The notes: generated by a model from the sequence alone, not told the origin. DNA of 64,000 bases from an uncultured bacterium (GCA_963843795.1 CAWJLW010000006.1:3298375-3362374); one strand, 5' to 3'. Shown: positions 2,535 to 63,022, numbered from the stretch's first letter. Made by a program: numbers and translations.

Positions 2535-2605
2535 AGGTTTCTCTGACTGGTTTTGGGCGGTGCAGTTTTGCTTTGAAAAGCGCGCTGCAAGTACTTGCAA
2601 CGCCT

Positions 2606-2649
2606 AATACAAAAGCGCCCTGCAAGTACTTGCAGAGCGCTTTTGTATT
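2606..2649. terminator. Palindrome-tipped hairpin, probable intrinsic terminator
   Basis: aatacaaaagcgccc-TGCAAGTACTTGCA-gagcgcttttgtatt, 12 nt past the stop of the 2662-4047 gene. Confidence 0.7.
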
Positions 2650-2661
2650 TCAGTTTGAGCT

Positions 2662-4047
2662 TTACGAAAGAATTTGCCCGGCGATGAGCAGCAGGGCTTC
2701 GACACGCGGTGCGGGTGCGAGGCCGCGCGCTTCCAGAATGGCGCGGCTGATGTTGCGACCGGCCAAATCTTGCAGCGGCGCAGCGCGCAAACGCAACTGC
2801 GAGCGGCGCGCGCCGGCAACGGATTGTAGGAAGGAACCGACCTGCACGCGTCCACCTTTCCACGTCAGTTGCTTGCCCCAATCGCGTCCGCGCCACAAAT
2901 CGTGCAGCACCATCAAGCGCGCCAATCGGCTTTGCAGTTGGTCTTTATAGGTGCCCGAATCGGCAGTCAGCGAATAATTCCACATGCGGTCGAGGAGCGA
3001 AGCTTCGATGGCGGGGGTGGCAGTCGGATAAATCGCGGGCAGCGCATCAGAAAGCGCGCGCAACACTTCGTTTTGCGGTGGCAATTGCAGCAAAACCGGA
3101 ATCGCACGCTGATCGTATTTAGCAGCCACTTGCGCCAGCGCCGAAATGCGGTCGGCGGTGCTGGAACTGAGCGTGGTCTGCGAAATTTCCGATAAATTGG
3201 TGCGCGCAACGGCGAGGCTTTTTAATCCGGGATAGTTGATATCGTTGGCAATGCGACGCGCTGTGCCCAGATCGAACAACGCCGCCGCACCGGCAACTTC
3301 AGCCAGCAGAAAATCGCGTTCGCCGCCCGAATTCAATTTGCGCACGCTGGTCGAGGCTTCTTTCACCGCAGCTTCGCGCAACGCGGGATTTAAGGAAGCC
3401 ATGCGACGCGCCACGTAGGTGAGCGCACGCGCGCGATAAAGCGCATTGGGTTCGCGGCGCGCAGCTTTTTGCGCATCGATAGCATATTGGTTGGCCGCAG
3501 TCCAGTTGGTGCGCTCGGCGCGCTGTGACAGCGACAAAAATGCACCCGCGCGTGCAGCGTTATCGCTCAGGCCGCCCGCAATACGGCGCGCGAACTGGCC
3601 ATCGCGGCGCGTGGCGGAATCGAAAAAGTCGGCAAGAGCATCGACACGCCGCGTGCGCGAAACGCCGCCCGCCATCGCTAGTTTGAGCCAGCGATTAGTG
3701 AGATTCGAGCGTTCGGGTTCCTGCAAAGCGGGCAGCAACGACGAAGCGCCGCGCACTGCGTTAAGGCGCGTCTGCGAATTGGCAACTGCAGATTCGCGCT
3801 CGGCCAGTGTGAAGGCTTCGCCAATGAGCGCAGCGGCTTGTTCCGAAAGTGCGGGCGTGACCGAAGCGGTGCCCGCCATCATTGGCGGGGCGGGAGTGTC
3901 CTGAGCTAAAACCGTTGCGCTGAGCGTGGCCATTAACAGCGGTGTTATGGCCAGAGCATAGAATGTCGAAAACGATTTCGTCGAAAACGATTTTGTAGCG
4001 TGGTTGTCTGCGTTGCCGTCCTGTCTGCCTGGATTGTGTATCGCCAT
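2662..4047 (-). CDS. Secreted Ala/Arg-rich helical hypothetical protein
   Basis: Long ORF; likely start MAIHNPG at 4047; signal-like segment ALAITPLLMATLSATVLA-QD. Confidence 0.75.
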   Translation of the reverse strand: MAIHNPGRQDGNADNHATKSFSTKSFSTFYALAITPLLMATLSATVLAQDTPAPPMMAGTASVTPALSEQAAALIGEAFTLAERESAVANSQTRLNAVRGASSLLPALQEPERSNLTNRWLKLAMAGGVSRTRRVDALADFFDSATRRDGQFARRIAGGLSDNAARAGAFLSLSQRAERTNWTAANQYAIDAQKAARREPNALYRARALTYVARRMASLNPALREAAVKEASTSVRKLNSGGERDFLLAEVAGAAALFDLGTARRIANDINYPGLKSLAVARTNLSEISQTTLSSSTADRISALAQVAAKYDQRAIPVLLQLPPQNEVLRALSDALPAIYPTATPAIEASLLDRMWNYSLTADSGTYKDQLQSRLARLMVLHDLWRGRDWGKQLTWKGGRVQVGSFLQSVAGARRSQLRLRAAPLQDLAGRNISRAILEARGLAPAPRVEALLLIAGQILS

Positions 4048-4376
4048 AGAATTTCGTTTCAAAACGCACCTCTTCCTAACCCGGAATTTCTTTCGCCGCG
4101 TTCCAAGGGTCTGTCCCAATGGTTTGTAGAGCGCTGCGAATTAACCTTTTGTTTACCCTGTTTTCGCCGTTGGTTTTCGCCTTCGGTTTTGCCTCAATAT
4201 TTGCGCGCTTGCGAGCGGCTGTGAAACGGTGGTTTTCCACATTTTCGGCGCACCGCGCGACGTTAAGGTGCCACTATTGTAACAAACGTAGAGGTCGCGC
4301 GTGAATGTGCCTCGTTACACTGCAAACTGCATTGCAAATCGCGACACTTCCCAACAACTTTCTCAGGAGTTTAATT

Positions 4377-4844: not shown

Positions 4845-4880
4845 CAAAAGCACGCTGCAAGTACTTGCAGCGTGCTTTTG
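4845..4880. terminator. Perfect 36-bp palindrome, bidirectional terminator between convergent genes
   Basis: caaaagcacgc-TGCAAGTACTTGCA-gcgtgcttttg. Confidence 0.75.
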
Positions 4881-4896: not shown

Positions 4897-6405
4897 TCAA
4901 ATCGCGCCACGCGCTTTCAATTTCATATAACGATTAACGGTTGCAATTGTCAACTGGCTGGCATCGACATCTAAAATTCCTACGCCTTGCCGACGCAGAT
5001 TCTCGAAAACCGCAACGCGCTGGCTCAACATCTTTTGCGCCATCGCTTTTTCGTATAAATCGTTCATGTTTTGCGGCAGTTGTCCAGCCAATTCGGCCAC
5101 ATCGCGATTACTGATCGCGACGCACATCGCGCTGTGATGGCGGCGCAAAGTCGCTGAAGCAGTCAAAAGTTCGCGCGAGGCGAACGGGTCGATGACATCG
5201 GTGAAAGTCACGACTAAAGAACGACGAATTTTGCGTGCATCGAGATACGTGTAAGCCGCGCCGTAATCTGGCTCGACGAGTTGCGGTTGCGCGCCGTAAA
5301 GCGCTTCGATGATTTGGCCGGTTTGCAGGCGACCTTTGCGCGGCGGAACCCAAGTTTTCACGCCATCGGCGAACAACAGCAAACCGACGCTATCGCCCAT
5401 CGAAGCCGCGACGTGCGATAGCAAAACTGTGGCGTTAATTGCGCAATCGAGCTTTGATAGCGGAACATCGGGCGAATTGTCAAGCGCGATTTTGGGGTCG
5501 GGTGCAAGTACTTGCAGGGTGCCGAAGTGCGCTTCGGAATCGAGGGAAGTGGGGATTGTGGCTTTCACATGAGCGGCGCGCGCGTGAGCGAGTGCAGTCA
5601 TCATTCGCCCGCAATCCAAAGCAATGATAATGGTTTGGTCGCGTTCGATTTCGTAATTGGTCGAAATCAAACGTCCGCGCCGCGCCGAGGCTTTCCAGTT
5701 GATATTTTTGAATTCATCGCCCGGCGTATAATCGCGCAGACTTTCGTATTCCGTTCCCTGCCCACGGGAACGCAAACGGTGCAAACCCAGTTCGCTGGCG
5801 CGCCCCAAACGCAATTGCAATTCGTAACGCTTGACTTCGCTCACATCGGGATAAACGCGCACGGTTTGCGCGGCGGGCGTTTTAAATTGTCGCCACCACA
5901 AACCCAGCGGCGTTGGGTAGCGCGCGTATAAATCGCCAAATTCCCAGTCGCCGCGCCGCGTCGGTAGAATTTCGTAACTGGCCGAATCTTCGCTGCCCGC
6001 TTTGAGCGACAATCGCACCAATGGCAAACGTGTTGTATCGAGCGCGGTCGAGGCAGCAGAAATAGCGGTTGCAGGCAAATTTCCGCTATCGCGAAGGGGC
6101 CACTCGTGCGGCGCTTCGTCGCGAATCGTGATGGCAACTTCGCGTTGCGGCGCGCGTTCGGCCTGACGGCGGCGCGCATGAATGGTGATGCGATTGGCGG
6201 TTCCCAGATTCAAACGTGCGGAAGTTTCGCGCGTGATTTCCCATTGATCGGGACGCGGAGAAAGAAACCAATCCATCGCTGAAACCACGATAATTACGCC
6301 CAGATAAAGCAGCGCGATGGGAACAAAAAACGGCACCAGAGCGGCGCTGACCCAGAAAATCGCTCCCAACATCACGTAACCGGCCAATCGTAGCGAAGGC
6401 ATCAT
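4897..6405 (-). CDS. DUF58 family membrane protein (MoxR-associated, VWA-like)
   Basis: GQGTEYESLRDYTPGDEFKNINWKASARRG...DCGRMM motif; N-terminal transmembrane helices. Confidence 0.9.
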   Translation of the reverse strand: MMPSLRLAGYVMLGAIFWVSAALVPFFVPIALLYLGVIIVVSAMDWFLSPRPDQWEITRETSARLNLGTANRITIHARRRQAERAPQREVAITIRDEAPHEWPLRDSGNLPATAISAASTALDTTRLPLVRLSLKAGSEDSASYEILPTRRGDWEFGDLYARYPTPLGLWWRQFKTPAAQTVRVYPDVSEVKRYELQLRLGRASELGLHRLRSRGQGTEYESLRDYTPGDEFKNINWKASARRGRLISTNYEIERDQTIIIALDCGRMMTALAHARAAHVKATIPTSLDSEAHFGTLQVLAPDPKIALDNSPDVPLSKLDCAINATVLLSHVAASMGDSVGLLLFADGVKTWVPPRKGRLQTGQIIEALYGAQPQLVEPDYGAAYTYLDARKIRRSLVVTFTDVIDPFASRELLTASATLRRHHSAMCVAISNRDVAELAGQLPQNMNDLYEKAMAQKMLSQRVAVFENLRRQGVGILDVDASQLTIATVNRYMKLKARGAI

Positions 6406-6568
6406 AATTTAAGTTCATCCGTGGGCGCGACCAAACATCTCGCAAGTACTTGCAGCAAGGACTTGCACCCTTATTTTAACGCGCTGCTGTGGGAGGCGAT
6501 AAAGTAAGCAGTGGAGCCTGCGCGCCTTTGGCCGTTCTATAAACGCGATCACAGCTCGATTCAATGCT

Positions 6569-7505: not shown

Positions 7506-7612
7506 AGCTTTGTGTGCTTGTTGGCAAGTACTTGCCACGCGTTTTGGGTTGAGTTTGGGAGCTGTCATGATTTCAAAAGTTGTTGCAAGCGCCGTTGGTG
7601 CGAGGTGGATGG

Positions 7613-8404
7613 ATGCAGATTCGCATTGAAGACGCGCGCAAAATTTATAAAAGTCGTTCCGGCCCGGTCGTCGCCCTGGACGGCGTAAATCTTACCATCG
7701 ACGAAGGCGAATTCGTGTGTTTGGTCGGGCCGTCGGGCTGTGGCAAATCGACGCTGTGCAATATGATTGCGGGTTTCGATACGCCGACTGAAGGTCGTTT
7801 GACTTTGAATGGCAAAACCATCAGCGGCCCTTCTATCGAGCGCGCGATGATGTTTCAGGAGCCGGCACTTTTTCCCTGGCTCAGCGCCCAAAGCAACGTC
7901 GAATTCGGCCTCAAAAGTTTAAAAATTCCCGCCGAAGAGCGCGCCGAACGCGCTCGCAAGTACTTGCAACTGGTGCATTTGTCGCAATTCGGTGGCGCGC
8001 AGCCGCACGAGCTTTCGGGTGGAATGCGACAGCGCGTGGCGCTGGCCCGTGCCCTTGCAGTTGAACCCAAAGTGCTTTTGATGGACGAACCGTTCGCCGC
8101 GTTAGATGCGCAGACGCGCGATCACTTGCACGTCGAACTGGAAAACATCTGGCGACAAACGCGCAAAACCATTGTTTTCGTGACGCACAACGTGCGTGAA
8201 GCGGTGACATTGGCAACGCGTATCGTGGTGTTTACAGCGCGTCCGGGCCGCATCAAAGCCGAATTCGATCTCGAAGATTTGGAGTATCCGCGCGGCGGTG
8301 GGCAAACGTTGGTCAATGAAACGGTGGCGCGTGTGCAAAGCGCCCTGCGCGATGAAGTCGCCAAAGTTGAAGCCAAAGAATACGATTCAGGAGGCAGCGT
8401 GTGA
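7613..8404 (+). CDS. NitT/TauT/SsuB-family ABC transporter ATP-binding protein
   Basis: GPSGCGKST Walker A, LSGGMRQR signature, LMDEPFAALD, FVTHN. Confidence 0.93.
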   Translation: MQIRIEDARKIYKSRSGPVVALDGVNLTIDEGEFVCLVGPSGCGKSTLCNMIAGFDTPTEGRLTLNGKTISGPSIERAMMFQEPALFPWLSAQSNVEFGLKSLKIPAEERAERARKYLQLVHLSQFGGAQPHELSGGMRQRVALARALAVEPKVLLMDEPFAALDAQTRDHLHVELENIWRQTRKTIVFVTHNVREAVTLATRIVVFTARPGRIKAEFDLEDLEYPRGGGQTLVNETVARVQSALRDEVAKVEAKEYDSGGSV

Positions 8405-9436: not shown

Positions 9437-10438
9437 ATGAAGAATCGCAGACATTTTTTGGGCGCAGTGGGCGCTGTGGCCGTTTTTGCAATCGCCGGTT
9501 GCGGCAGTAGCGGTAGTAACACGAATACGAGCGGCGAAAGCGCCGCATCGAGCGAGGCGCTCAAAAGCGTGACAGTTGGTTATTTGCCCAACATCGTAAT
9601 GCCTCAGCCCCTAGTTGGCTTACAGGACGGTTTATACGAGAAAAACGTGCCGAATGTGAAGTTCAGTGGCAAAGATTATCCGGCTGGGCCATCGGTAGTC
9701 GAAGCGTTGCGTTCGGGTGTCGTCGATATCGCTTACACCGGCCCGTATCCTCCGCTCAAAGGGTTCGCCAAAGATAAGGATATCGTTCTGCTCGCGGCTG
9801 CCGGTTCGGGCGGCACCGAACTGAGCGTAGCAAAAAATTCTTCCGTCAAAAGCGTGAAAGATTTGAAGGGCAAAACCGTCGGCGTCAACCAATTGGGTTC
9901 AACAGTTGATGCGATGGTGCGCCACGTTCTGATTGAAGCTGGTTTACAGCCGGGTAAAGACGTAAAAATTACGCCGGTTCCGCCCGCTGAACAAGGCGAC
10001 GCTTTGGCGCGTGGCACGGTCGCTGCAGTCGCCGCGCCTGCGCCATGGCCGATTGTCACCAACCAGAAAGGTGGCCGCGCGCTGCTCGATTGGAAAGCGA
10101 TTTTGGACGATGGCAAGTACTTGCAGGGCGTCGCCTTCACTACCAAGAAATTTGCCGCAGCGCATCCCGAATTCGTCAAGCAATTCGTCGCTGCACACCG
10201 CAAAATCACCGATGATTTGAACGCCGACCGCGCCAAAGCCGACAAGCAAATCGTGACGGCGTGGCAAAAAGTAACCGGCAAAAAGATGGAGCCAAGCGTT
10301 GCCGATGCCGCTTTCAAAACCATTCAGTTCGTCAACGATTCGAGTTTGGACGAGTGGAATCGCGTGCAAGATATCGCAGTCGAAACCGGAATTATGCGCA
10401 AAAAAGTCGCGCTAGATGGTTATTTATACGGACAATAA
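9437..10438 (+). CDS. SsuA-like (aliphatic sulfonate-type) ABC substrate-binding lipoprotein
   Basis: Lipobox IAGC; AGPSVVEALRSGVVDIAYTGP; SVKDLKGKTVG. Confidence 0.88.
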   Translation: MKNRRHFLGAVGAVAVFAIAGCGSSGSNTNTSGESAASSEALKSVTVGYLPNIVMPQPLVGLQDGLYEKNVPNVKFSGKDYPAGPSVVEALRSGVVDIAYTGPYPPLKGFAKDKDIVLLAAAGSGGTELSVAKNSSVKSVKDLKGKTVGVNQLGSTVDAMVRHVLIEAGLQPGKDVKITPVPPAEQGDALARGTVAAVAAPAPWPIVTNQKGGRALLDWKAILDDGKYLQGVAFTTKKFAAAHPEFVKQFVAAHRKITDDLNADRAKADKQIVTAWQKVTGKKMEPSVADAAFKTIQFVNDSSLDEWNRVQDIAVETGIMRKKVALDGYLYGQ

Positions 10439-10452: not shown

Positions 10453-11475
10453 ATGAACACTCGTCGCAAGTACTTGCAGAGCATTCTTGCTCTCACACTT
10501 TCCGCTGCAATTAGCGGCTGCGCTTCCAATTCGTCCGCGCCGGAAAGCAATTCCGCCGCTGTTGGCGACAGTTCCAGCAGCACTCCGCAAACGCTGACTA
10601 TCGGCTACAATCCAACAATTGTGCAGCCGCAAGCGCTGGTTGGCATTCAAGGTGGCGATTACAAAACTGCTCTGCCTGAGGTCACAATTGAAGGCCGAGA
10701 CTTCGATGCTGCGCCCGCTGTTTTGGAGCAACTGCGCGCGGGCACGATTCAAATCGGTTGCGGCGGCCCGTTTCCCGCGATGCGCGCGTTCGTCGGTGAT
10801 GGCGACATCGTTTTATTGTGCAACGCAGCCAACGGGGGCACACAATTATCGGTAAAAAGCGATTCGCCCATCAAAACTGTCGCCGATTTAAAGGGCAAAA
10901 TTATCGGCGTCAATCAATTGGGTTCAACTGTTGAAGCGATGGTGCGCTTTCAACTGGTGGAAGCGAAATTAAACCCGAGCAGCGATGTCAAGTTCGTCGA
11001 AATCAAGCCCGCCGAACAAGCCGCCGCCTTGAAAAGCGGCGATGTGCAGGCCGTCGCTGCGCCCGCGCCGTGGCCTTCGCAAGTGCAAGCCGATGGAACC
11101 GCGCGCGCCTTGGTCGATGGCAACGCGATGTATGAAGGCGGTAAGTATTCGAGCGCCGCGTTTTTCACCACGAAAAAATTCGCCGATGCCAATCCGCAGC
11201 TCATCGAAAAATTTATCGCCGCGACCGAAAAAATCACCGATGATTTGAACGGCGACCGCGCCAAAGCCGATGCCCGCGTGCTACAAAACTGGGCAATCGT
11301 GACCAAGAAAACTCTTAAACCCGAAATTGCCAAAGCCGCGTTTTCAACGATTACCTACGACACGAAGTTGGATCAAGCCGCACTGCAAAAGTTCGCCGAC
11401 ATCAATTTCAAACTCGGTGTGCTGCGCCAGAAACCTGATTTGAACGGTTTCATCTGGCAAGCCAAAGCGCAGTAA
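10453..11475 (+). CDS. Second SsuA-like substrate-binding lipoprotein (tandem paralog)
   Basis: Start MNTRRKYLQ; lipobox ISGC; shares GVNQLGSTV, AAPAPWP and TTKKFA with the upstream paralog. Confidence 0.88.
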   Translation: MNTRRKYLQSILALTLSAAISGCASNSSAPESNSAAVGDSSSSTPQTLTIGYNPTIVQPQALVGIQGGDYKTALPEVTIEGRDFDAAPAVLEQLRAGTIQIGCGGPFPAMRAFVGDGDIVLLCNAANGGTQLSVKSDSPIKTVADLKGKIIGVNQLGSTVEAMVRFQLVEAKLNPSSDVKFVEIKPAEQAAALKSGDVQAVAAPAPWPSQVQADGTARALVDGNAMYEGGKYSSAAFFTTKKFADANPQLIEKFIAATEKITDDLNGDRAKADARVLQNWAIVTKKTLKPEIAKAAFSTITYDTKLDQAALQKFADINFKLGVLRQKPDLNGFIWQAKAQ

Positions 11476-11494: not shown

Positions 11495-11526
11495 AAAGCC
11501 CGCTGCAAGTACTTGCAGCGGGCTTT
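11495..11526 (+). terminator. Palindrome-tipped intrinsic terminator
   Basis: aaagcccgc-TGCAAGTACTTGCA-gcgggcttt followed by further T's. Confidence 0.75.
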
Positions 11527-11611
11527 TTGTGCTTTGTGTGTTTCGCAAGTACTTGCGCGGGAACGGCATGCCCAAATTTTCGTGGTTGAAACAGCCAATT
11601 CCCATTTCTTA

Positions 11612-14359: not shown

Positions 14360-14432
14360 GACACTCAGGTGCTTGCAAGTACTCGCACCCGTCATTATAG
14401 CCTCGCAAGTACTTGCAAAGCATTGACCCGAT

Positions 14433-15515: not shown

Positions 15516-15574
15516 AGTCCGCCAAAGCGTCCTGCAAGTACTTGCAGGACGCTTTCTCACACCAAATTTGCGTT

Positions 15575-16103: not shown

Positions 16104-17282
16104 ATGAAAAAGCAACGATATTTAATTGCGCCCGTGGTGGCGATTTGCTGCGTGGCAAGTACTTGTTGGAGTTCTGCGCCCGCGCTCGCAGCCAAATCAG
16201 ATAAAGATGAAATTCCCAAAGGCGCAACGCCGCGCGAGATTTCGATGGGCGATAAGGCTCAGAAAGAATTAGAAAAAAGTCCTGAAATTAAATTGCTCGA
16301 CCTGAAAGACGCCAAAGCCAAAGTGCTGTCTGACAAAGTCAATGGAATGGTGCGCGAACTGGGCAAAAATTCGACGCGGCCCGACATCAAATATCAAGTC
16401 AAAATCGTCGATGGTGATGACTTGAATGCTTTTACACTTCCCAACGGTAAAATTTATCTATTTCGCGGTTTAATTGATTTCGCGGGCAGCGATGATGAAA
16501 TCGCCGCCGTTTTATCTCACGAAATTGGTCACAACGCGCGGATGCACGCGCTGCGTGGACAGGCCAAAGCCAATAAATTATCGTGGGTCGGTTTGGCGGC
16601 GATGGCGGCGATGCTGACCGGCGGCAAATCGGGCGCGGATGTCGGCCAGTTTTCGCAGTATTTGCTGATGGGCATCATGAATGGCTATACCGAAGAATAC
16701 GAAAAAGAAGCTGACGAAGAAGCCATCACACAGATGGAAAAAACCCGGTGGAATCCTTCGGCTCTAGTCACGTTTATGAATCGTCTCAATCAGGAAGAAA
16801 AACGTCGCCCTGAATGGGAACCAGGCATTTTTCGCACGCATCCACCTACCGCCGAGCGTGCCGATGCCGCGATTGCAGAACTCAAGCGTGAACATATTCC
16901 CTACACGCCGCGCGACGTGCAGGGCGCGAATGAGGCGCACAGCGAAGTGCCCGAAGCCAAAGATCGCGTGCAATTGTTGTTCGGCAAAACCGTGTTGCTC
17001 GAACTAAGCGCGAATGAAAAAACTCTGCCACAAGTGCAAGCGCGCGCCGATGCTGTCGCCACGCAAATTAACAGCTTGATGAAAGCGAATTTATTGATGC
17101 ACGAAATCACTGTCGCGGGCGATGCGAAACGCGCACAAATCAACGCGCGCGGCCTGACGCTCATCGAAATCACGCCCGCTGATACCACGCTGCAAAAGCA
17201 GACGCCGCTCGAAGTCGCGACAACAGCGCGCGATAAATTCCGCCGCATCTTCTGGCGTGAAACTCTAAGCGGCGGAATGTAG
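16104..17282 (+). CDS. M48 family Zn metallopeptidase (BepA/Oma1-like), secreted
   Basis: NAFTLPNG, HEIGH, EKEAD, THP. Confidence 0.9.
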   Translation: MKKQRYLIAPVVAICCVASTCWSSAPALAAKSDKDEIPKGATPREISMGDKAQKELEKSPEIKLLDLKDAKAKVLSDKVNGMVRELGKNSTRPDIKYQVKIVDGDDLNAFTLPNGKIYLFRGLIDFAGSDDEIAAVLSHEIGHNARMHALRGQAKANKLSWVGLAAMAAMLTGGKSGADVGQFSQYLLMGIMNGYTEEYEKEADEEAITQMEKTRWNPSALVTFMNRLNQEEKRRPEWEPGIFRTHPPTAERADAAIAELKREHIPYTPRDVQGANEAHSEVPEAKDRVQLLFGKTVLLELSANEKTLPQVQARADAVATQINSLMKANLLMHEITVAGDAKRAQINARGLTLIEITPADTTLQKQTPLEVATTARDKFRRIFWRETLSGGM

Positions 17283-17351
17283 AAAATTATGGAATTAAAA
17301 TAACGCCCTGCAAGTACTTGCAGGGCGTTTTCTTTTGTCAAACTGCGCTGT

Positions 17352-18212
17352 ATGATTTCCTCGCACACGCGCACACTCGCTATCATTGGCGACCCAATCG
17401 AACATTCCATCACGCCGCGCATTCAAAACCACGCTCTCTCTGCAATCAACGCCGACATCGTCAACGTCGCGTTTCGCGTCGCGCCTGAAAACTTGCACGA
17501 AGCGGTTCGTGGCGCGCAAAAATTGGGCTTTTTGGGTTTGATGGTGACGATTCCGCACAAAGAGCGCGTGCTGGAATTGTGCGACGAGTTGGACGAATCG
17601 GCACGCTTGATGGGTGCGGCCAACCTGCTGCATTTTCGTTCGGATGGCAAAATTATCGGCTATTCGTCCGATGGTTGGGCGGCTTTGAAAAGCCTAGCCG
17701 AAGAAGGCGCAACGATTGAAAACCAAAGAGTGGCGATTCTGGGCGGAGGCGGCGCGGCGCGTTCTCTGGCGCTCACGTTCGCCGCTGCGGGCGCGCAAGA
17801 AATCGTTGTCTTGAATCGAACTCTCGAACGCGCACAAACGATTTGCGACGAATTGATCGAGCGCAATTTCAAGACGCGCGCGCTGCCTTTGAATCCAGAA
17901 ACCTGCCGCGAAACCATGCCAAACATCGACGTTTTGGTGAACACAACTTCGGTCGGCATGAGTCCAGAAATCAAAGCCTCGCCCATCGATGCGCAAGTAC
18001 TTGCACCGCATCTGACGGTTTACGACATCGTTTATAATCCTCTCGAAACGCGCTTGCTGCGCGAAGCCAAAAGCGCGGGCGCGCGTGTTGTCGATGGTTT
18101 GGGAATGCTGATTTACACCAATGTTTTCGCTGTCAAAACCTGCGCCAATTTGGAAATCTCCGCAACGTTGATGCGCGAAGAATCGTTGCAGGCGTTGGGC
18201 GAAAAAAGTTAA
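17352..18212 (+). CDS. aroE: Shikimate dehydrogenase
   Basis: GDPIEHSITP, VTIPHKE, LGGGGAARS, NTTSVGM, YDIVYNP, DGLGML. Confidence 0.93.
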   Translation: MISSHTRTLAIIGDPIEHSITPRIQNHALSAINADIVNVAFRVAPENLHEAVRGAQKLGFLGLMVTIPHKERVLELCDELDESARLMGAANLLHFRSDGKIIGYSSDGWAALKSLAEEGATIENQRVAILGGGGAARSLALTFAAAGAQEIVVLNRTLERAQTICDELIERNFKTRALPLNPETCRETMPNIDVLVNTTSVGMSPEIKASPIDAQVLAPHLTVYDIVYNPLETRLLREAKSAGARVVDGLGMLIYTNVFAVKTCANLEISATLMREESLQALGEKS

Positions 18213-19586: not shown

Positions 19587-19681
19587 CGTGTCCTCCTCGT
19601 CGCGCCCGTGATGAACGCCCGTTTCAATTTTTGTAGTTCGTTGGCTCACCGCAAGTACTTGCGAGGCGTGTGATGTGGATT

Positions 19682-20285: not shown

Positions 20286-21017
20286 TCAAAATTTGAGATT
20301 CCACTCAGGGTTCAGATAACGCTCTCTCAATAACTTTTGCATCCGTTCATCAGGAAATTGCTCGAAGTGGCCGTGTGCATTCCATTCTGTGATAAGCGCA
20401 TCTTTAATTTTCTGTCGCGTCAGCGGAAGTGTGGTCAAAAATTCGGTGTGAGTGCGATGAGCACGATATTCGGGCTGGCGCGCGGGCAGTTGGAGAGTTT
20501 GCGCGAGGAGTTCGGATGGTAAATCGAGCAGGAACGTGCCGTGAAAAAGCGTGAATCGGCGTTTTCGACGTTGGGCATTACCGGAGAATTTGCAATTATC
20601 AAGTGTTAAATCAGTCGTGCCCTGCACATGAATTCGATTTCCCATTTCGCCGGCAAGTACTTGCAAAAGGGCACTTCGCTGGCGCGCCATGATATAAGCG
20701 TTGCTTTCCGAAACAGTTTGCAGTTCAGCGTGCGCGGCGATTTCTAAAACCAGCGCGTAATTGAAACTGCCCGGACCTTGCAGCACGGTTCCACCGCCGG
20801 AAACGCGGCGCAGAATGGGAATGTTCAAACTGCGACAATTTTCGCGCTGAGTTTCGGTTTCAATGGAGTTGGTGTAGCCCAACGCGACGAATGGGACGGT
20901 AGATTCCCAAAAACGCAGAATTTCGCCGCAGTCGCTAACTTCGGCAAGTTCCAGCAAAGTTTCATCGGCGGCGAGATTTTCTTCTGGTGTGTCGAAAGTG
21001 CGCTCGAAAATTAGCAT
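20286..21017 (-). CDS. Lipoate-protein ligase A family protein
   Basis: NLAADE, RRVSGGGTV, KFSGNAQ, HGTFL. Confidence 0.9.
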   Translation of the reverse strand: MLIFERTFDTPEENLAADETLLELAEVSDCGEILRFWESTVPFVALGYTNSIETETQRENCRSLNIPILRRVSGGGTVLQGPGSFNYALVLEIAAHAELQTVSESNAYIMARQRSALLQVLAGEMGNRIHVQGTTDLTLDNCKFSGNAQRRKRRFTLFHGTFLLDLPSELLAQTLQLPARQPEYRAHRTHTEFLTTLPLTRQKIKDALITEWNAHGHFEQFPDERMQKLLRERYLNPEWNLKF

Positions 21018-21089
21018 AAGCGTTCAAACAGCAAAAAGCGCGCTGCAAGTACTGCGCAAGTACTTGCAGCGCGCTTTTTCGCACTGATT

Positions 21090-22481
21090 TTAAATATGAA
21101 GAGCGCGCTTATCGACGGCGAGCGCGGCTTCGTGCAAGGCTTCGCTAAGGGTGGGATGCGCGTGACAGGTACGTGCGATGTCTTCGCTGCTCGCGCCAAA
21201 TTCCATCGCGGCGACGGCTTCGGCGATCAAATCGCCCGCGCGCGGGCCGATGATGTGAACGCCCAAAACGCGGTCGGTTTCTTTATCGGCCAGAATTTTG
21301 ACCCGGCCTTGAGTGTGGCCAATGCAGCGTGCGCGGCCATTGGCCGAGAACGGAAAAATGCCTTTATTATATTCAATGCCCGCTTCTTTCAACTGGTCTT
21401 CGCTTTTGCCGACCGTCGCCACTTCGGGCTCTGTGTACATAATGCCGGGAATCGTGTCGTAGTTAACATGACCATAACCGCCCGCAATGAGTTCGACACA
21501 CGCGACGCCTTCTTCGGTCGCTTTATGGGCCAGCATAGGGCCGACGACCACATCACCAATTGCATAAATACCTTGCAAATTGGTTTCGAAACGCTCGTTG
21601 ATGACAACGCGCCCGCGCTCATCGGTTTCAAGGCTGATCGTGTCCAAGCCCAGACCTTCGGTGTTGGGCGCGCGGCCCACGCAAAGCAGAACTTTATCGG
21701 CGCTAATCGGATCGTCGCCTTCAAGTTCGACAAGAGCTTTGCCATTCTCCACGCGCGCACCTAGCACTTTGGTTCCCAGCTTGAAAGTCAGACCTTGGCC
21801 TTGAAAAACCTTCAAGGCTTCAGCGGCCATCTCGCTGTCCATACCGGGCAAAATGCGCGGCAGATATTCCAACACTGTAACTTGCGCGCCCAATCGGCGC
21901 CACACACTGCCCAATTCCAAACCGATATAACCCGCGCCAATTACAATCAAATGCTCCGGCACTTCGCTATAAGATAGCGCATCGGTGCTGGTGCCGATGG
22001 TGTCGCCATCAAGTTCGACGCCTTTGAGTTGCGCGGTCACGCTGCCGGTCGCGATGATGATGTGATCGGCTTCAATTTCCTGAGCTTCGCTGCCATCGCC
22101 ATCGGCAAGTACTTGCACCGTGTGCGGAGAAGTGAACTGGCCGGTTCCACGATAGCGTGTAATTTTGTTTTTCTTGAACAGAAAATCGATGCCTTTGGTA
22201 TTGGCTTCCACGACTTCGGTTTTGCGCGCCATCATACGACCCAAATCGAACGAAATTTCATTCGCTGTGATGCCGTGTTCTTTGAGTTCGTGTTGCGCTT
22301 CGTGCAAACGTTCGCTCGATTCGAGCAGCGCTTTGGAGGGAATGCAGCCAACGCGCACACAAGTTCCACCCAGAACCGGCTCTTTTTCAATCACGCCGAC
22401 GTTCATGCCCAACTGCGCGGCGCGAATCGCGGCGGGATAACCCGCCGGGCCGCCACCGATAATTAATAAATCGTGTTTCAT
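21090..22481 (-). CDS. lpdA: Dihydrolipoyl dehydrogenase (E3)
   Basis: GGGPAGY, GGTCVRVGCIPSK, HAHPTLSE. Confidence 0.96.
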   Translation of the reverse strand: MKHDLLIIGGGPAGYPAAIRAAQLGMNVGVIEKEPVLGGTCVRVGCIPSKALLESSERLHEAQHELKEHGITANEISFDLGRMMARKTEVVEANTKGIDFLFKKNKITRYRGTGQFTSPHTVQVLADGDGSEAQEIEADHIIIATGSVTAQLKGVELDGDTIGTSTDALSYSEVPEHLIVIGAGYIGLELGSVWRRLGAQVTVLEYLPRILPGMDSEMAAEALKVFQGQGLTFKLGTKVLGARVENGKALVELEGDDPISADKVLLCVGRAPNTEGLGLDTISLETDERGRVVINERFETNLQGIYAIGDVVVGPMLAHKATEEGVACVELIAGGYGHVNYDTIPGIMYTEPEVATVGKSEDQLKEAGIEYNKGIFPFSANGRARCIGHTQGRVKILADKETDRVLGVHIIGPRAGDLIAEAVAAMEFGASSEDIARTCHAHPTLSEALHEAALAVDKRALHI

Positions 22482-22629
22482 AAAGGTTTATACAAATAAA
22501 AATAACCGCAAAAAACGCAAAGAAGGCAAAGATTTGAGAAAGTTTGAGTCACGTCTCACTGCAAGTACTTGCAGGCTCAGTGATCTTCTTTGTCCTTTGC
22601 AGCCTTTGTGTTCTTTGCGGTTTTGTCAA

Positions 22630-23970: not shown

Positions 23971-24132
23971 GACATTTCCTTTGTACGCTGGCCGCAATCG
24001 CTGCGGCATTTCCTATTTTGGGCGGCAAGTGCGTGCGGCAAGTACTTGCGGAGCGCAATTTATCGTAAATCTTCCTGTATTTAAAATGCGAGAACAACGG
24101 CAAGCACTCATCGCGAGTACTTGCTGTTGTTC

Positions 24133-27145: not shown

Positions 27146-27343
27146 AATTCTTCTCAGCAATCGGCTTTGATTCAAATCAAGAGGCAGTTTACAACACTAA
27201 CCACACAAATTATCGGTGCCTCAAGTACTTTTACAGAAGATTTCTGGGCTCCACACTCCCAACAATCGGCCGTCAACAAAACCATCAACAAAAGTCTGAC
27301 GTTTGATTCCTGCCTAAGCATGCTGCAAGTACTTGCCACACTT

Positions 27344-28414: not shown

Positions 28415-28473
28415 TTAATAAACGAAAAGCGCATTGCAAGTACTTGCAACGCGCTTTTGACAGGCAACACAAT

Positions 28474-34073: not shown

Positions 34074-34140
34074 TTATCTTTTTGAAATCAAGGTCATATA
34101 GACACGCTGCAAGTACTTGCAGCACCAATTTCTGCTCGAT

Positions 34141-40189: not shown

Positions 40190-40269
40190 GAATCCATCGA
40201 AAGCACAAAAACGGCTCTGCAAGTACTTGCAGAGCCGTTTTACGTTTGAATATCCAAAATTCACAAACC

Positions 40270-44638: not shown

Positions 44639-44682
44639 GACGAGAAACAATTGAGGCGCTGCAAGTACTTGCAGCGCCTTTT

Positions 44683-46110: not shown

Positions 46111-46256
46111 AAACTCCTCGAATTGTGATGCTACAAAACGCGCTGCAAGTACTTGCAGCGCGTTTTGCACTCGTTGATTTAAAGGGTTGGGCGATTTAAT
46201 TTTACTGTTTTCGCGGCGTTTCGATGCGATTTTCTCGTCGCAAGTACTTGCAGCGC

Positions 46257-47654: not shown

Positions 47655-47724
47655 AATTTCAAATTTATAAATTCAAAAAGGCGCTGCAAGTACTTGCAGC
47701 GCCTTTTCAACGGACAAGCCGCGA

Positions 47725-49295: not shown

Positions 49296-50090
49296 TTAAA
49301 TGTTTTCCAGAGCTGAAGCGGAGTTTTTCTCACTGCAAGTACTTGCAGCGTCATTTTCTGCAGAAACTTGACCTTGAAACCAATCGAAAGCGATTTGAGC
49401 GGCGCAGGTTTCCGCCGCTTTTTTGGTGCGGCCTTCGCCCTGCCCACGCACCACTCCATCGACTACGACTTGCGCGCAATAGCGCCGTTCAGACGCGAGG
49501 TTTTTGGCGATGCCTTTATCGGCTGCAATGCGATAAACCGGCGTGCCCAGCGCGTTGGCCTGCGTCCATTCCTGCAACAAATTTTTGATATTGACTGTGC
49601 TGGCCTGTGTCGCCAGTTCAAACTCATCAACGAACCAACGTTCGATGAAAGCGCGCGTAGCCTCAATGCCACCAGACAAATGAATCGCGCCCATTACGGC
49701 TTCGATGGCATCACACAAAATCGTGTCGCGTTGTGCTCCACCCGCATTCGATTCGCCGCGTCCCAAGACCAGATAGTTACCCAGTTCCAAGCGTCGCGCC
49801 ACACGCGCTAAAGTCGTTTTCTGTACGATAGCGGCTTTGCGTTGCGTGAGGTCGCCTTCGGGCAATTCGGGAAAACGACGATACAAATATTCGGCGACAA
49901 CCGCACCGAGAATCGTATCGCCCAGAAACTCCAAACGTTGATTCGATTTCAAGGTACGCTCGACGCCTTCACCGACTGCCGAAGGATGTGTAAGGGCGAG
50001 TTGCAGCAGTTCGTCGGAGACCTCGCAACCCAACTTGGGCCGCAACGATTTCCATTCTGCGGGCCAAACGGGTGTGCGGTCGATTTGCAT
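49296..50090 (-). CDS. rnc: Ribonuclease III
   Basis: ALTHPS, NQRLEFLGD, DAIEA, C-terminal dsRBD GRTKKAAE. Confidence 0.94.
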   Translation of the reverse strand: MQIDRTPVWPAEWKSLRPKLGCEVSDELLQLALTHPSAVGEGVERTLKSNQRLEFLGDTILGAVVAEYLYRRFPELPEGDLTQRKAAIVQKTTLARVARRLELGNYLVLGRGESNAGGAQRDTILCDAIEAVMGAIHLSGGIEATRAFIERWFVDEFELATQASTVNIKNLLQEWTQANALGTPVYRIAADKGIAKNLASERRYCAQVVVDGVVRGQGEGRTKKAAETCAAQIAFDWFQGQVSAENDAASTCSEKNSASALENI

Positions 50091-50143
50091 GATCCAAATG
50101 ATAAACCAAACGCGCTGCAAGTACTTGCAGCGCGTTTGAAATT

Positions 50144-51382: not shown

Positions 51383-51558
51383 GATATATTTTTGACACTT
51401 AACAATTTACTTGTTCAATTCCGCGCAAAGAATCACAGAGATTTCGTAGAGAGCCGGAAGAAAAGAGAGAAAGCTCAATCTGCAAGTACTTGCAGATTGA
51501 GTTTTCGAAATCTCCAAGTTTTCTGCGAAATCTTTGTGTCTTGGCGCGAAGTTGAAAA

Positions 51559-52589: not shown

Positions 52590-52639
52590 AATTTCCTCTG
52601 CAAGTACTTGCACCATTGCTTGCACCAAGTCCTGGCGCT

Positions 52640-53530: not shown

Positions 53531-53581
53531 AATTTCTGGACGATTACACTTTGCAAGTACTTGCAACTCATTATGAGAATT

Positions 53582-54163: not shown

Positions 54164-54198
54164 AATTGGGTGCAGGTACTTGCAACACACTCTAACAT

Positions 54199-56549: not shown

Positions 56550-56677
56550 CGGCTACTCGATTTAGATAAATCCCACACAAAAACTGGTGAGGCAGACGCC
56601 AAAAAGTACTTGCGAAGGTTTCGCAAGTACTTGCAGGGCGTTTTCACCGTTTCAAAGGCACCTTGAGGAGGCACCGT

Positions 56678-57604: not shown

Positions 57605-57670
57605 GGCCGCCACACTGTGCAGCAGGTACTTGCACAAGCTATTGCGCCCGTATCCGCAACATTAAAAACA

Positions 57671-59034: not shown

Positions 59035-59709
59035 TCAACCATCAAGCACGGCAGTTCGCGCCCAAATCAACGCCTCATCAAAATCACGTTCTTCCAGCAG
59101 AGAACGGCACCAAGCCGCTGCAAGTACTTGCAAACCATGCGGCGCGCCAACGAAAGTTTTATACGCCGCAGATAAGGCTGCGTTTTCTAACAGTTCGCCA
59201 TCGAGCCAGAATTTTTTGTGGCGCCACATGAGACGATGTTTGGCGTCACCTCGCTGCCACTGAAACTTCAAGGTTTCGTCACAAAAACCATGTTCGAGGC
59301 GTGCGCTGCGGATCGCTTCTTTTTGGCCTGCGCACAAGTTGACGCGATAAGGTTGCTCGCGCTCACTTAAATTTTCGAATTGCAGCGCCGGAATTTTAAT
59401 TTTTTCTGAATTTTCCTGAAAATCATTTTCCACAGTGCGTTGGGCGAACCGTGCATTGGGATCGTCGCCGAAAGTGGTTTCCAAACGCGCTGCCAAACCC
59501 CAGCGCCACAACGCGCGCGCCGCGACTGCCGCGCCACCAATTTCACGTTTTTCATGCACAATTTGAGCAGTGGACGCGGAAACTGATGTCTCAAAAACTG
59601 GCTTTGAGTCGAGTTGGAGCCAGTATTCAACCCAAGTCGCCCCACTTACGCAGAGCGCCTGAAAATCGGATTCGAACGTGGTATTAAGCGATGCGTCGGG
59701 AACAATCAT
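59035..59709 (-). CDS. Hypothetical protein, degenerate PfkB-kinase-like N-terminus
   Basis: IGGAAVAARALWRWG...FGDD resembles PfkB signature 1; no DTxGAGD motif. Confidence 0.5.
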   Translation of the reverse strand: MIVPDASLNTTFESDFQALCVSGATWVEYWLQLDSKPVFETSVSASTAQIVHEKREIGGAAVAARALWRWGLAARLETTFGDDPNARFAQRTVENDFQENSEKIKIPALQFENLSEREQPYRVNLCAGQKEAIRSARLEHGFCDETLKFQWQRGDAKHRLMWRHKKFWLDGELLENAALSAAYKTFVGAPHGLQVLAAAWCRSLLEERDFDEALIWARTAVLDG

Positions 59710-60526: not shown

Positions 60527-60690
60527 TCGGAAATTTCAAATTTAGAATTTCTACACGAAAAGCCCAAGCCAAGCGGTTGGCATGCTGAGAAAATTATCAG
60601 TGACAGAAAAATGTAACACCCAAAGTCGGTGCTGTTGTCGAATCAATCCAAATGTGTTTTGTCACAAAATTGTTATCCAAAGGAACGCCC

Positions 60691-62844
60691 ATGCGAAATT
60701 TTGTTCCCCTGTTCGCTTTAAGTGCTTGCCTGATTTTGGCTCCCACTCTGACCCATGCTCAAGAAGGTCTGCCCGGTGGCGACCCGTTTGGTGGTGGCGA
60801 CCCCACCCAGCCCGGCGGAGAGGGTTTTGGTGAACCCGGTTTCGGAGACCCCGGCTTTGGTGAGCCAGGTATGAACGACGGGCTGGACGGTTTGCCCGAT
60901 CCTGCTGCGGAACCTAACGATACGCCGATGGACGAAAATGGACCAGTGCAGGCCGCAACAGCCAACGACTGGACAGTTTTCAAGGGCGACCAGCAACGTA
61001 CTGGTGCGCGTGCCGTTTCGTTGCAATTGCCCTTAAATTTGTTGTGGCGGCATTCGGCGGAAGAAGCGCCCAATCCCTCGGCGGCGCCAATTGTGGCGGG
61101 CGCTGGCGCGGAACGGCGCATATATTTCGCGGCGGGCGCGACAGTTTATTGTTTGAACGCGCAAACCGGCGCGCGCATTTGGAAAAGCCAGGTCTTGACG
61201 CGCGCCATTACCGCGCCACTGGGTTTCACGTCGGGGCCCGACGGTGACATGATTCTGGCCATCACCAGTGGCGGTCAGATGAGCGCGCTACGCACGAGCG
61301 ACGGTGGACAAATCTGGCTGGCCGACGCCAAAGCCCCGGTGCAATCGGGCGCACCGATGGTCATTGAAACTCCCAAAGGGCCTCGCATTGTGGTCGGCGT
61401 TTCCCTGGGACGTTTGCTCGCGTTTACCATGGAAGGCGCGCTCGACCCAAGCTGGGAAGTGCGCATCGGTCAAACCGGCACCGCCCCGACTTCAACTCCC
61501 GCGCTTTCTGTTGACGGCAAGCGTTTATTCGTGTGCGCGCAGGACCAGCGCTTATATTGCATTGATGTCAAGAAAGCCAGCGTGGTGTACACGGTGACAC
61601 TGGGATCTTCGTCGCAAGGCAGCCCCTTAGTACTTGGCGATCAAGTCGTAGTGGCAGCGGGCGACATTGTGACCGGTTTTCGCGATTCGACCGGCGATCC
61701 GATCTGGCGCGTTGATACCGATGGACGTCAGGTGACAGCTTCGCCTTCGGGTATCATCAAAGGCGAAGTGCCAATGATTTACATCGGCGCGCGCAACGGC
61801 GTTTTCTTCGCCATTGATGGACGGCGCGGTCAAGTGGTTTGGAAAACGGATCTCGGTCAGCCAGTGACCGGCACAGCCACCGTAACACCGAACGCGATTT
61901 ACGTGGGCACGGCCAACGGGGTTATGTTCGCGCTCAATCCCGAAGATGGTAAATCTATTTGGGAGTATCGCCTCGATACCAAACGCGAAATCGAAGTCGC
62001 TAACTCGTCCAACCAACGCAATGGAATTGGCGGCAGAGGAGCTGGCGGTTTGGGGTCAGGTGGCGCAGGTAGTGGTGGATTCGGAGGGCGCGGAGCCGGT
62101 GGGCGCGGTGGCTTTGGTTTTGGCCGCACGCAAACCGTCGAGCGCATTTTTGGCATTTCCGCAGCGCCTGTTGTACTGGCCGGACAAGCGTTTGTCTTGG
62201 GCGACAACGCCGCGTTGTACGCTTTTGACGCTGGCATAATGGATGCCGCGCCGCCACGCGTGGTCGAACCCTCGATCAGCGTAACGGCAGCCGAAGGTGG
62301 TTTATCGACACGCGCGCTGGACGCTGACCGGCCACTTTTGATTCCGGGTCGCGCGCCAGTTTACTTTGCAGCGATTTTGAACGATAGCGGTTCGGGCATT
62401 AATCCAGACTCAATCAAAGCCAACCTGGATAACGAAGCAGTGCCCGCAGCACGCACCGTTTTTAACATCGCCAGCGGCATATTGACCGTTACGCTCAATT
62501 CCAATGCGAATGGAGCGGGCACTAATTTGCCCGATGGCACACACACCATTACCATCGACGCCAAAGATTACGCCGGAAATCCTTTACGCTACACAGGTCG
62601 TATTACCGTCGATAACTCAACTCCTCCGCCCTCGCAACAACCGGCAACCGGTGGACGCGGCGGTCGTGGTGGGCGTGGTGGATTTGGTGGACGCGGCGGC
62701 AGTTCCGGCGGGTTCGGTGGCAATGATGGCGGATTCGGCGGCGCAGACGGCGGTTTTGACGGCGGCGGTTTCGGTGGATTTGATGGTGGTGGATTTGATG
62801 GTGGCGGGTTTGGAGGCAGCAGCAGCGGAGGCCGACGCGAGTAA
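60691..62844 (+). CDS. PQQ-type beta-propeller (BamB-like) exported protein with an Ig-like domain and Gly-rich tail
   Basis: WTVFKGDQQRTG; repeated A.D..TG...W blades; GGFGG repeats. Confidence 0.85.
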   Translation: MRNFVPLFALSACLILAPTLTHAQEGLPGGDPFGGGDPTQPGGEGFGEPGFGDPGFGEPGMNDGLDGLPDPAAEPNDTPMDENGPVQAATANDWTVFKGDQQRTGARAVSLQLPLNLLWRHSAEEAPNPSAAPIVAGAGAERRIYFAAGATVYCLNAQTGARIWKSQVLTRAITAPLGFTSGPDGDMILAITSGGQMSALRTSDGGQIWLADAKAPVQSGAPMVIETPKGPRIVVGVSLGRLLAFTMEGALDPSWEVRIGQTGTAPTSTPALSVDGKRLFVCAQDQRLYCIDVKKASVVYTVTLGSSSQGSPLVLGDQVVVAAGDIVTGFRDSTGDPIWRVDTDGRQVTASPSGIIKGEVPMIYIGARNGVFFAIDGRRGQVVWKTDLGQPVTGTATVTPNAIYVGTANGVMFALNPEDGKSIWEYRLDTKREIEVANSSNQRNGIGGRGAGGLGSGGAGSGGFGGRGAGGRGGFGFGRTQTVERIFGISAAPVVLAGQAFVLGDNAALYAFDAGIMDAAPPRVVEPSISVTAAEGGLSTRALDADRPLLIPGRAPVYFAAILNDSGSGINPDSIKANLDNEAVPAARTVFNIASGILTVTLNSNANGAGTNLPDGTHTITIDAKDYAGNPLRYTGRITVDNSTPPPSQQPATGGRGGRGGRGGFGGRGGSSGGFGGNDGGFGGADGGFDGGGFGGFDGGGFDGGGFGGSSSGGRRE

Positions 62845-62978
62845 TCGTAGCTCGGCGTTGGTCCATTCAGCGCATCGATCTTCAAAATATTGTTTCAAGA
62901 AAATGGACGATTTGTCCTCTAAGGCCCACGCGAGACGTTGCGTCGCGTGGGCCTTTCGTTATATATTGCCATCACGTT

Positions 62979-63022
62979 TGCGCCACATCATCCTGCAAGT
63001 ACTTGCAGGATGATGTGGCGCA
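62979..63022. repeat. Perfect 44-bp palindrome centred on the iterated motif
   Basis: tgcgccacatcatcc-TGCAAGTACTTGCA-ggatgatgtggcgca. Confidence 0.95.

Follow-up and report, generated by a model that had tools for sequence, protein, structure and literature searches.

The 64-kb stretch of bacterial DNA considered here (the window; C6:3298375-3362374 of the source genome G000, which comprises 4.30 Mb in 11 contigs and is 92% complete) is punctuated by a 12-bp perfect palindrome, GCAAGTACTTGC, of which 45 exact copies lie between positions 2587 and 63006. This is the number reported, as approximate, in a preliminary description of the window, and 100 dinucleotide shuffles give a mean of 0.01 copies with a maximum of 1. 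The one-mismatch sites mentioned there are also present, all seven of those listed being found, although four of the coordinates were off by 1-2 bases and a further site had been overlooked (6455); the eight sites are 6455, 14375, 16155, 24113, 29562, 41313, 54172, and 57622. According to the gene calls made for this analysis (3,463 genes in G000, 85.8% coding, starts uncertain), 14 of the 45 exact sites fall within genes and 31 outside, in agreement with the dispersal described earlier, and 11 of the 31 intergenic sites have stems of at least six further pairs. In the following list, coding and intergenic assignments rest on these gene calls, one-mismatch and tandem copies on sequence matches, and hairpin tops given with no folding energy on stem extension.

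2587..63006: span of the 45 exact GCAAGTACTTGC sites with the extended consensus
2587..2633: intergenic pair (2587, 2622), 35 bp apart, among the few pairs out of helical phase
4845..4880: site 4857, capping a two-way hairpin of terminator type (-27.5 kcal/mol, z -6.7) in a convergent gap
5504..5515, minus strand: coding site (LQVLA) in a DUF58 gene
6442..6466: site 6442 and one-mismatch site 6455, 13 bp apart, in a divergent gap
7524..7535: intergenic site with no extended stem (fold z 0.9)
7956..7967, plus strand: coding site (RKYLQ) in an ABC ATPase gene; the G009 ortholog aligns ungapped and lacks the word
10113..10124, plus strand: coding site (GKYLQ) in a gene for an SsuA-family binding protein
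10466..10477, plus strand: site near the start of a second SsuA-family gene (RKYLQ), start codon uncertain
11495..11556: two in-phase sites with a spacing of 40 bp, 11505 (hairpin, -25.4 kcal/mol) and 11545
14375..14416: in-phase pair with a spacing of 30 bp, 14375 (one mismatch) and 14405 (exact)
15524..15555: site 15534, hairpin top
16155..16166: one-mismatch site
17302..17329: site 17310, hairpin top
17993..18004, plus strand: coding site (AQVLA) in aroE, G009 ortholog ungapped
19651..19662: intergenic site
20653..20664, minus strand: coding site (LQVLA) in a lipoate ligase gene
21056..21067: intergenic site with a decayed tandem copy directly 5'
22105..22116, minus strand: coding site (VQVLA) in lpdA, no hairpin (z 0.15)
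22561..22572: intergenic site
24038..24124: exact site 24038 and one-mismatch site 24113
27325..27336: intergenic site
28436..28447: intergenic site
29562..29644: sites 29562 (one mismatch) and 29633 (exact) at a distance of 71 bp
30863..30874: intergenic site
33040..33051: intergenic site
34109..34120: intergenic site
35249..35260, minus strand: coding site (SQVLA) in a sugar ABC ATPase gene
36808..36819: intergenic site
37789..37800, plus strand: coding site (EQVLA) in a rhamnosidase gene
40208..40241: site 40219, capping a two-way hairpin (-25.3 kcal/mol) in a convergent gap
41313..41324: one-mismatch site
42120..42131, minus strand: coding site (LQVLA)
42294..42305, minus strand: coding site (LQVLA)
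44654..44679: site 44661, hairpin top
46134..46251: hairpin site 46145 (-27.9 kcal/mol, from folding) and site 46240, 95 bp apart
47676..47707: site 47686, hairpin top
49335..49346, minus strand: coding site (ASTC) near the end of rnc
50107..50138: site 50117, hairpin top 3' of fabF
51474..51501: site 51482, hairpin top
52600..52611, minus strand: site at the fabG start (VQVLA), start codon uncertain
53553..53564: intergenic site
54172..54183: one-mismatch site
56623..56634: intergenic site
57622..57633: one-mismatch site, A4G class
59120..59131, minus strand: coding site (LQVLA)
62979..63022: site 62995, center of a 44-bp perfect palindrome just upstream of dprA (-39.6 kcal/mol, z -9.8)
63033..64000, plus strand: dprA (PF02481, E 1e-75), extending past the window end

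The enrichment is neither confined to the window nor compositional. The source genome contains 2,567 exact copies, on all 11 contigs, compared with 0.63 and 1.31 expected on both strands from order-2 and order-3 Markov models, respectively. For sites with zero, one, and two mismatches the observed numbers are 2,567, 506, and 371, while an order-3 model on the core-masked genome gives 0.09, 6.0, and 127.5; the commonest one-mismatch class genome-wide is A4G. The density is 0.6/kb with a median spacing of 1,283 bp, and it remains flat, at 47-83 copies per 100 kb, across C6 100-3,600 kb, without a break where the GC skew switches. Polarity by strand or replichore, of the type of Chi or the FtsK-orienting polar sequences (KOPS), is not seen along the contig; a surplus of 3' A over 5' T around the window copies is local. 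The half-site 10-mers fall within the full site in 5,134 of 5,345 cases, which makes the G000 word the full palindrome, and its extended consensus is AAA-n-SCGCT-core-AGCGS-n-TTT, flanked by phased A/T tracts that reach about 65 bp on each side. The word is missing from the 16S gene, and three sites, at C6 26711, 27083, and 29921, may lie within or outside the 23S gene.

In each of 40 relatives GCAAGTACTTGC occurs 0-3 times. The earlier proposal of a lineage-specific word kept by a sequence-specific process is supported. An Rfam search of the window gave no match, and literature searches for the 12-mer, for AAGTACTT palindromes, for Abditibacter palindromes, and for Armatimonad uptake sequences, with supplements and most subscription papers outside their scope, returned no description of the word among the papers listed, as judged from titles and the beginnings of abstracts. 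We place G000 in the Abditibacteriaceae because the closest named relative of the window FabF is an Abditibacteriota genome (73%) and a homolog of the G000 methyltransferase is named Abditibacterium utsteinense. The dialects, non-palindromic sister words, even spacing, and helical phasing described below go beyond the preliminary description.

Within genes, the codons of the motif prevail over codon usage. The tripeptide QVL is written with them in 557 of 937 cases (59%, compared with 0.4% expected from codon usage), KYL in 192 of 314 (61%, expected 4%), and ASTC in 115 of 133 (86%, expected 0.2%), the last being 34-fold over-represented in the proteome. Conservation was followed in two sets of metagenome contigs of relatives, with 28 loci each from 80 full-flank loci. 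Coding cores occupy the same column of the orthologs in 27/64 and 26/43 cases, compared with 6-7% of random 8-mers, although the surroundings of the coding sites are the less conserved ones (identity of the flanks 0.60 and 0.56, versus 0.67 and 0.70). Alignment gaps near coding sites are a minority, 6/64 and 4/43, which is above the 2-3% background. Between two metagenome relatives of 81% identity, 53 of 77 cores are intact (0.88 in the core, 0.74 in the flanks), and AGTACT sites share a column in 6/13 cases for G000 and G001 and in 1/35 for G000 and G009. Sites persist in a genus as their flanks get rewritten, with turnover between genera.

The spacing of neighboring sites is considerably more even than random, the coefficient of variation being 0.78 in G000, compared with 1.19 +/- 0.02 in 200 shuffles that keep the coding and non-coding densities, and 0.64 in 400 kb of G009, compared with 1.06 +/- 0.05. 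Coding sites avoid non-coding ones, with a median distance of 1,048 bp versus 700 bp for random coding positions (p 3e-21), and the number of copies per gap stays at about 0.6 for gap lengths of 40-5,000 bp. It follows from the even spacing, the flat number per gap, and the mutual avoidance that a second nearby site is worth little, helically phased close pairs excepted. A comparison of core and acquired DNA, suggested in the preliminary description, shows that the word is depleted from recently acquired islands: the four longest site-free stretches, of 26-33 kb, carry conjugation, phage-tail-like, insertion-sequence (IS), and type I restriction genes, as judged from translations read by eye. 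Two site-free stretches named from such a reading are C3:1-32022, a cluster resembling an extracellular contractile injection system, and C6:3590136-3623414, of 63% GC with VirB-like conjugation genes. The word thus arises and is maintained at the DNA level, in positions that tolerate it, with one copy per 1-1.5 kb.

Genome-wide, 758 sites (30%) are coding and 1,809 (70%) non-coding, corresponding to 0.21 and 2.95 per kb, and all three reading frames are used (115, 145, and 498 sites). Gaps of at least 20 bp hold a site in 1,605 of 2,985 cases, most often when convergent (279/427; divergent, 231/450). The stem extension is bimodal, and 547 non-coding sites reach at least six added pairs, mostly with A and T tails, which flank 174 of the 194 convergent long-stem sites. 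Folding energies of five long-stem window sites range from -25 to -40 kcal/mol (z between -5 and -10), whereas two stemless ones do not fold in this way. About 550 intergenic sites are accordingly hairpin tops of predicted intrinsic terminators. There are 2,342 different 30-mers among the sites, the most frequent occurring 50 times, and the stems are independently complementary, which indicates that the terminators are built around the word. Head-to-tail doublets, 12-13 bp apart, are found at 20 places in G000, e.g., C6:373244, most of them at hairpin tops.

The 147 pairs of sites 15-110 bp apart, all with different spacers, show spacing peaks at 20-21, 29-30, 39-41, 49-51, and 60-64 bp (Rayleigh Z 16.8 at 10.6 bp; nine control palindromes gave 0.1-2.3). 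At isolated sites, whether coding or not, A/T tracts have maxima about 14.5, 25, 35.5, 46, 56, and 66 bp to either side of the dyad. This phasing, at 10.5 bp, has a relative amplitude of 0.19, while the autocorrelation of tracts distant from any site gives 0.03-0.05 and eight control palindromes give 0.006-0.077. In arms without the nearest tract the amplitude is 0.17, at one-mismatch sites it is 0.13, and the oscillation is damped instead of box-shaped. The phasing of both close pairs and tracts suggests that recognition is of bent double-stranded DNA and takes place on a single face.

The relatives use other words. AGTACT is abundant (0.75-1.2/kb) in 6 of 331 phylum genomes, all of them Abditibacteriaceae, and amounts to at most about 0.24/kb in the remainder. 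Five relatives carry other AGTACT palindromes, the dialects being CAAAGTACTTTG in G001, TCGAGTACTCGA in G009, G015, and G019, and CGAGTACTCG in G012, and the metagenome relatives use CAAGTACTTG; within G000, words of other dialects are few and scattered (11 of the G001 type). Five further relatives carry non-palindromic words. That of G006, AGTACGGTCG, occurs 1,260 + 1,307 times (2,567), compared with 2-6 in four relatives, both singly and in 24-bp inverted terminator pairs; it is the right half of the G009 word plus two bases and differs by one base from the core of the Haemophilus influenzae uptake signal sequence (USS), AAGTGCGGT (PMC3458573). G007, G016, and G018 share an asymmetric core, CGTGGCTG, with YGTGGCTR counts of 3,774, 3,968, and 3,359, compared with 269-1,397 in 28 other genomes, and 24 of 28 sampled G007 sites are coding. 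The G020 word, CATTTTTTGTG, has 2,478 copies, compared with 3-17 in four relatives, and is also helically phased; at up to two mismatches, its sister G042 has 30 matches versus 2,409, with one decayed homolog in G041, a pattern compatible with both gain and loss. The asymmetric words show no strand or replichore polarity.

No dispersed word was detected in 16 of the 27 family genomes, in samples of 32-84 kb that rarer words could escape, from which we conclude that the function is dispensable. In an RpoB tree of 30 rows (without G024, for which there was no locus), genomes with and without a word are intermingled. Apparent words in G042, G017, G008, G005, G002, and G021 were rejected as local repeats or as showing no genome-wide excess. 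Contigs with a foreign-species word in genomes otherwise lacking it (G017 C26 and C50; G020 C179; G042 C13, C64, and C212) are recent transfers or mis-binned. Sampled sequence of G005, G008, G011, G013, G014, G007, G016, G018, G020, G022, G024, G041, and G042 is almost devoid of GTAC (0-1.1 per 10 kb), and AGTACT occurs 1-33 times in each of these genomes, which suggests a history of GTAC-directed restriction that would also bar DNA from relatives with AGTACT words. G020, G042, G013, and G024 have in common intergenic palindromic repeat families of 80-120 bp (L557:12062-12184, 13434-13520, 6198-6300, and 7583-7673).

Competence genes are widespread in the family (ComEC 27/27, ComEA 25/27, PilB 27/27), and G000 carries DprA, an unbroken ComM, secretins, ComEA, ComEC, PilB, and PilT. 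As a transformation gene, the dprA at the window end would belong to the pathway proposed below, and is not a demonstrated part of the motif system. comM is a known integration place of mobile elements, and it is found, as expected there, split by about 29 kb in G009 (C1:2145624-2176085) and across contigs in G006, with many 3' fragments in G007 and G010. Two prepilin-type genes of the window (40324-41154 and 47725-48651, one with an H-X9-DG match) lie beside rhamnose-utilization genes; G000 has 62 prepilin-motif matches, some of them false. The window also contains frame-split genes, a rhamnosidase in pieces at 41303-44794 and a shortened fabH at 54446-55255, likely due to assembly indels, less probably to decay.

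The explanation that we favor, at roughly even chances and by analogy, is that the palindrome is a species-specific signal for DNA uptake or for entry into recombination, similar to the DNA uptake sequence (DUS) and the USS and accumulated by drive. We favor it because the even spacing, the filling-in of long genes, the permissive positions, the absence from islands, the terminators, the dialects, and the USS-like sister word match the DUS and USS. In such a mechanism, a symmetric reader on the competence pilus or pore would bind the 12-16-bp dyad, and the phased A/T tracts would pre-bend about 130 bp into a U shape, as needed to start uptake inside a fragment. Site-bearing fragments would enter and recombine more often, such that sites accumulate where none is near, by molecular drive with or without selection, and many intergenic ones would later be extended into terminator hairpins. 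A change of the reader would create a new dialect, and a loss of the bias would let the word decay. Of the three processes named in the preliminary description, biased uptake would thus fit best and nucleoid-protein binding retains some probability, while methylation-linked repair is weakened.

Several observations weigh against an uptake signal. DUS- and USS-biased uptake goes through a receptor, ComP or the candidate ComN, and no candidate reader emerged here: pilins, ComEA, ComEC, and HU also occur in word-less genomes and do not track the words, and none of the main-operon pilins at the compared loci separates word-bearing from word-less genomes. The four main-operon pilins are net acidic, and the G000 pilus operon (C6:385-399 kb) is frame-split, with at least six breaks, including PilC, PilD, and two minor pilins; in G009, G006, and G007, the alignments of the minor pilins and of the prepilin peptidase each stay within one frame. 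The G000 background is 25 breaks per 136,435 aa (0.18 per 1,000 aa), and assembly error is conceivable because background breaks also cluster and strike conserved genes, decay and error being indistinguishable here. Intergenic sites are concentrated 10-50 bp past stop codons and occur within spacers of ribosomal-protein operons as well. The word is, unlike the DUS and USS, a perfect palindrome of unrelated sequence that itself forms the hairpin top, and where their phased tracts are two and one-sided, those of G000 extend over five to six turns on both sides, about 65 bp, resembling a gyrase footprint. The tract phasing is weaker, though still present, in the metagenome relatives and weak or unclear in G009. 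Finally, the G020 word is intergenic in 53 of 57 cases and four of its sites face gaps in G042; with the word lying mostly between genes, in DNA absent from the sister, not all family words need be one system, and this one may be another kind of repeat.

The two-sided phasing fits equally well a wrapping protein such as gyrase, and for this reason we retain, as the main, though somewhat unlikely, alternative, a cytoplasmic dimer that wraps or bends about 130 bp (a sequence-specific nucleoid protein, or gyrase or SMC, which the site would load or attract preferentially) and organizes supercoiling at gene boundaries, selection keeping one site per 1-2 kb. The symmetric A/T tracts, above background and controls, the in-phase close pairs, and the preferred occupancy of convergent gaps agree with it, as does the match of the phased extent with the 130-bp symmetric gyrase motif of Escherichia coli (PMC6379681), and Xu et al. 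proposed a chromosome role for the highly iterated palindrome HIP1. However, the weakness of this alternative is that most of the family lives without any word, and the complete differences between close kin, a nearly exact core where the gyrase motif is degenerate, asymmetric sister words, and an oscillation that is damped weigh against it as well. A reader of the TetR/SlmA type was rejected, as TetR_N has no match in G000, G001, or G015, and so was HU, of which G000 has one copy and which hardly differs between G020 and the word-less G042. A likeness of CAA-N4-TTG to the IHF consensus was dropped because the other dialects lack this element. If correct, this alternative would imply an undescribed sequence-specific chromosome-wrapping protein with thousands of sites.

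It is unlikely that the word is a methylation-dependent mark, in which an orphan N6/N4 methyltransferase would modify GTAC or AGTACT and an uptake or repair ratchet would read the modification, as for HIP1 (PMC4390886) or RAATTY. G000 has a single gene of this kind (PF01555), with orthologs in all six AGTACT genomes, GTAC is retained in every g1 and g6 word, that of G006 included, and Campylobacter jejuni, which imports only RAATTY-methylated DNA (CtsM), offers a precedent (PMC10046745). The search for methyltransferases and ComEA called for earlier found both, but neither tracks the words: the methyltransferase ortholog occurs in 22 of 27 family genomes (2 broken), 12 word-less ones included, and was not found in the word-bearing G016. 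As to its putative target, the best structural relative is M.RsrI (E 2e-36), and plasmid matches do not exceed 36%. No C5 methyltransferase (PF00145) was matched in G000, at its 92% completeness, G001, or G012, and a local repair ratchet predicts neither site repulsion nor helical phasing. The neighboring genes were rejected as readers since the neighborhood is not conserved. The orphan methyltransferase of G020 (C88) is closer to that of G000 (C6:2517365-2518135), at 75%, than are the enzymes of the sister genomes, at 58-61%, and it branches outside the clade that they form, possibly by transfer.

A Chi-like self-mark for defense or repair, where a nuclease or translocase spares or processes DNA with a site every 1-2 kb, would explain the even spacing and the absence from islands, but we consider it very improbable, given the lack of polarity in G000 and in the asymmetric sister words and the persistence of 26-33 kb site-free islands in the chromosome. 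A tailed-phage contig of 67.8 kb (G332; also G331 and G333) has the same core 20 times, as would suit a self-mark; its GC content is 39%, it shares four weak protein matches with G000, and its own 16-bp palindrome, of GTGCAAGTACTTGCAC type and mostly beside gene starts, is probably a phage operator or promoter word. Spread by insertion of a decaying, roughly 34-bp element like a repetitive extragenic palindrome (REP) or a miniature inverted-repeat transposable element (MITE), to which the intergenic majority, the 50-fold 30-mer, the 20 doublets, and the gaps near coding sites (9% versus 2-3%) might point, is scarcely credible and largely refuted for coding sites by the diversity of 30-mers and independent stems, the 758 in-frame coding sites, mostly ungapped in orthologs, the repulsion between sites, and the lack of GTAG at the 5' foot. 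The only Y1 transposase gene of the genome, similar to the REP-associated RAYT genes and with an early stop (C6:751.6-752.5 kb), is flanked by inverted pairs of canonical GTAG-REPs, of which 15 arms were found on C6 and which are unrelated to the palindrome; the attribution to a transposon end or REP family, raised in the preliminary description, does not hold.

Returning to the uptake signal, the Abditibacteriaceae might tentatively represent a third, independently evolved system, with a reader bending about 130 bp, switches between symmetric and asymmetric words within one genus, and one convergence on the Haemophilus core; if this is true, a single kind of signal would exist in two states, the HIP-type palindromes and the DUS/USS. 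The family offers close relatives with a palindromic, an asymmetric, or no word, through which the reader may be sought by phylogenetic profiling and drive distinguished from selection. The helical phasing provides a physical handle, as mutations can be directed at same-face pairs and pre-bent flanks separately from the core. In practical terms, donor DNA is identified by its words, which may be required for the transformation of these bacteria.

Sequence-specific uptake is established in two proteobacterial families, and the reason for HIP1 has been open for three decades. Like the DUS and USS, which are evenly spaced at permissive positions, scarce in acquired DNA, used in terminators, and divided into dialects (PMC2397512, PMC7811141, PMC3630211, PMC12616744), eight of them in the Neisseriaceae DUS (PMC3630211, PMC2397512), the G000 word recurs thousands of times at intervals of about 1-1.5 kb, more evenly than by chance, sits at permissive coding positions in all frames with codon usage overridden, is conserved above its flanks, is depleted in acquired DNA, is co-opted as predicted terminators, and has lineage dialects around a shared core. 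With the Pasteurellaceae USS (PMC3458573, PMC7811141) it shares phased A/T tracts, the T tracts of the former being thought to aid kinking at the pore, and the asymmetric word of G006, one base off the USS core, likewise forms inverted terminator pairs. Unlike both, it belongs to a different phylum and is patchy within its family.

Other known motifs are similar in some respects. The degenerate gyrase motif and the BIME-2 form of the bacterial interspersed mosaic element have a symmetric footprint of about 130 bp, 10-bp compositional phasing, and a gene-end bias (PMC6379681), as here, but the gyrase motif has no exact core and no dialects, whereas G000 has 2,567 exact versus 506 one-mismatch sites. 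The RAATTY system of C. jejuni also combines a palindromic signal with an orphan adenine methyltransferase in the genome (PMC10046745); its signal has six degenerate bases, against 12 nearly exact ones in G000, where the enzyme does not track the words. The SlmA-binding sequence, GTGAGTACTCAC, is a 12-bp palindrome with the same AGTACT core and shares GAGTACTC with the G009 dialect (PMC3020112); SlmA is a TetR protein with sites avoiding Ter, whereas G000 lacks a TetR_N match and a gap at the skew switch. REP and BIME are extragenic only, clustered, and RAYT-flanking, with a GTAG/GGAG foot, unlike a word with 758 coding sites, mutual repulsion, and no GTAG foot. We rule out for the word a REP, a transposon end, a SlmA site, and a C5-methylation HIP.

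The closest likeness in form is to HIP1 (GCGATCGC) and the alternate HIPs of cyanobacteria (PMC4390886, PMC5861425, PMC13756078, bioRxiv 2024.09.10.611283), iterated palindromes spread by substitution and conserved in coding and non-coding DNA, with species-specific palindromic extensions and a proposed link to transformation; HIP1 raises transformation in Synechococcus (bioRxiv 2024.09.10.611283, PMC13756078). The G000 word differs in its length (12-16 bp versus 5-10), its AT-rich core, its 70% intergenic placement, and the C5 methyltransferase, which was not found, and the 10.5-bp phasing and asymmetric sister words are features of the G000 family not encountered in the passages of the HIP literature consulted. 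Being palindromic and unrelated in sequence to the DUS and USS, and lacking the C5 enzyme of HIP1, the word is a member of neither group; by analogy, it would work like the DUS and USS while looking like a HIP.

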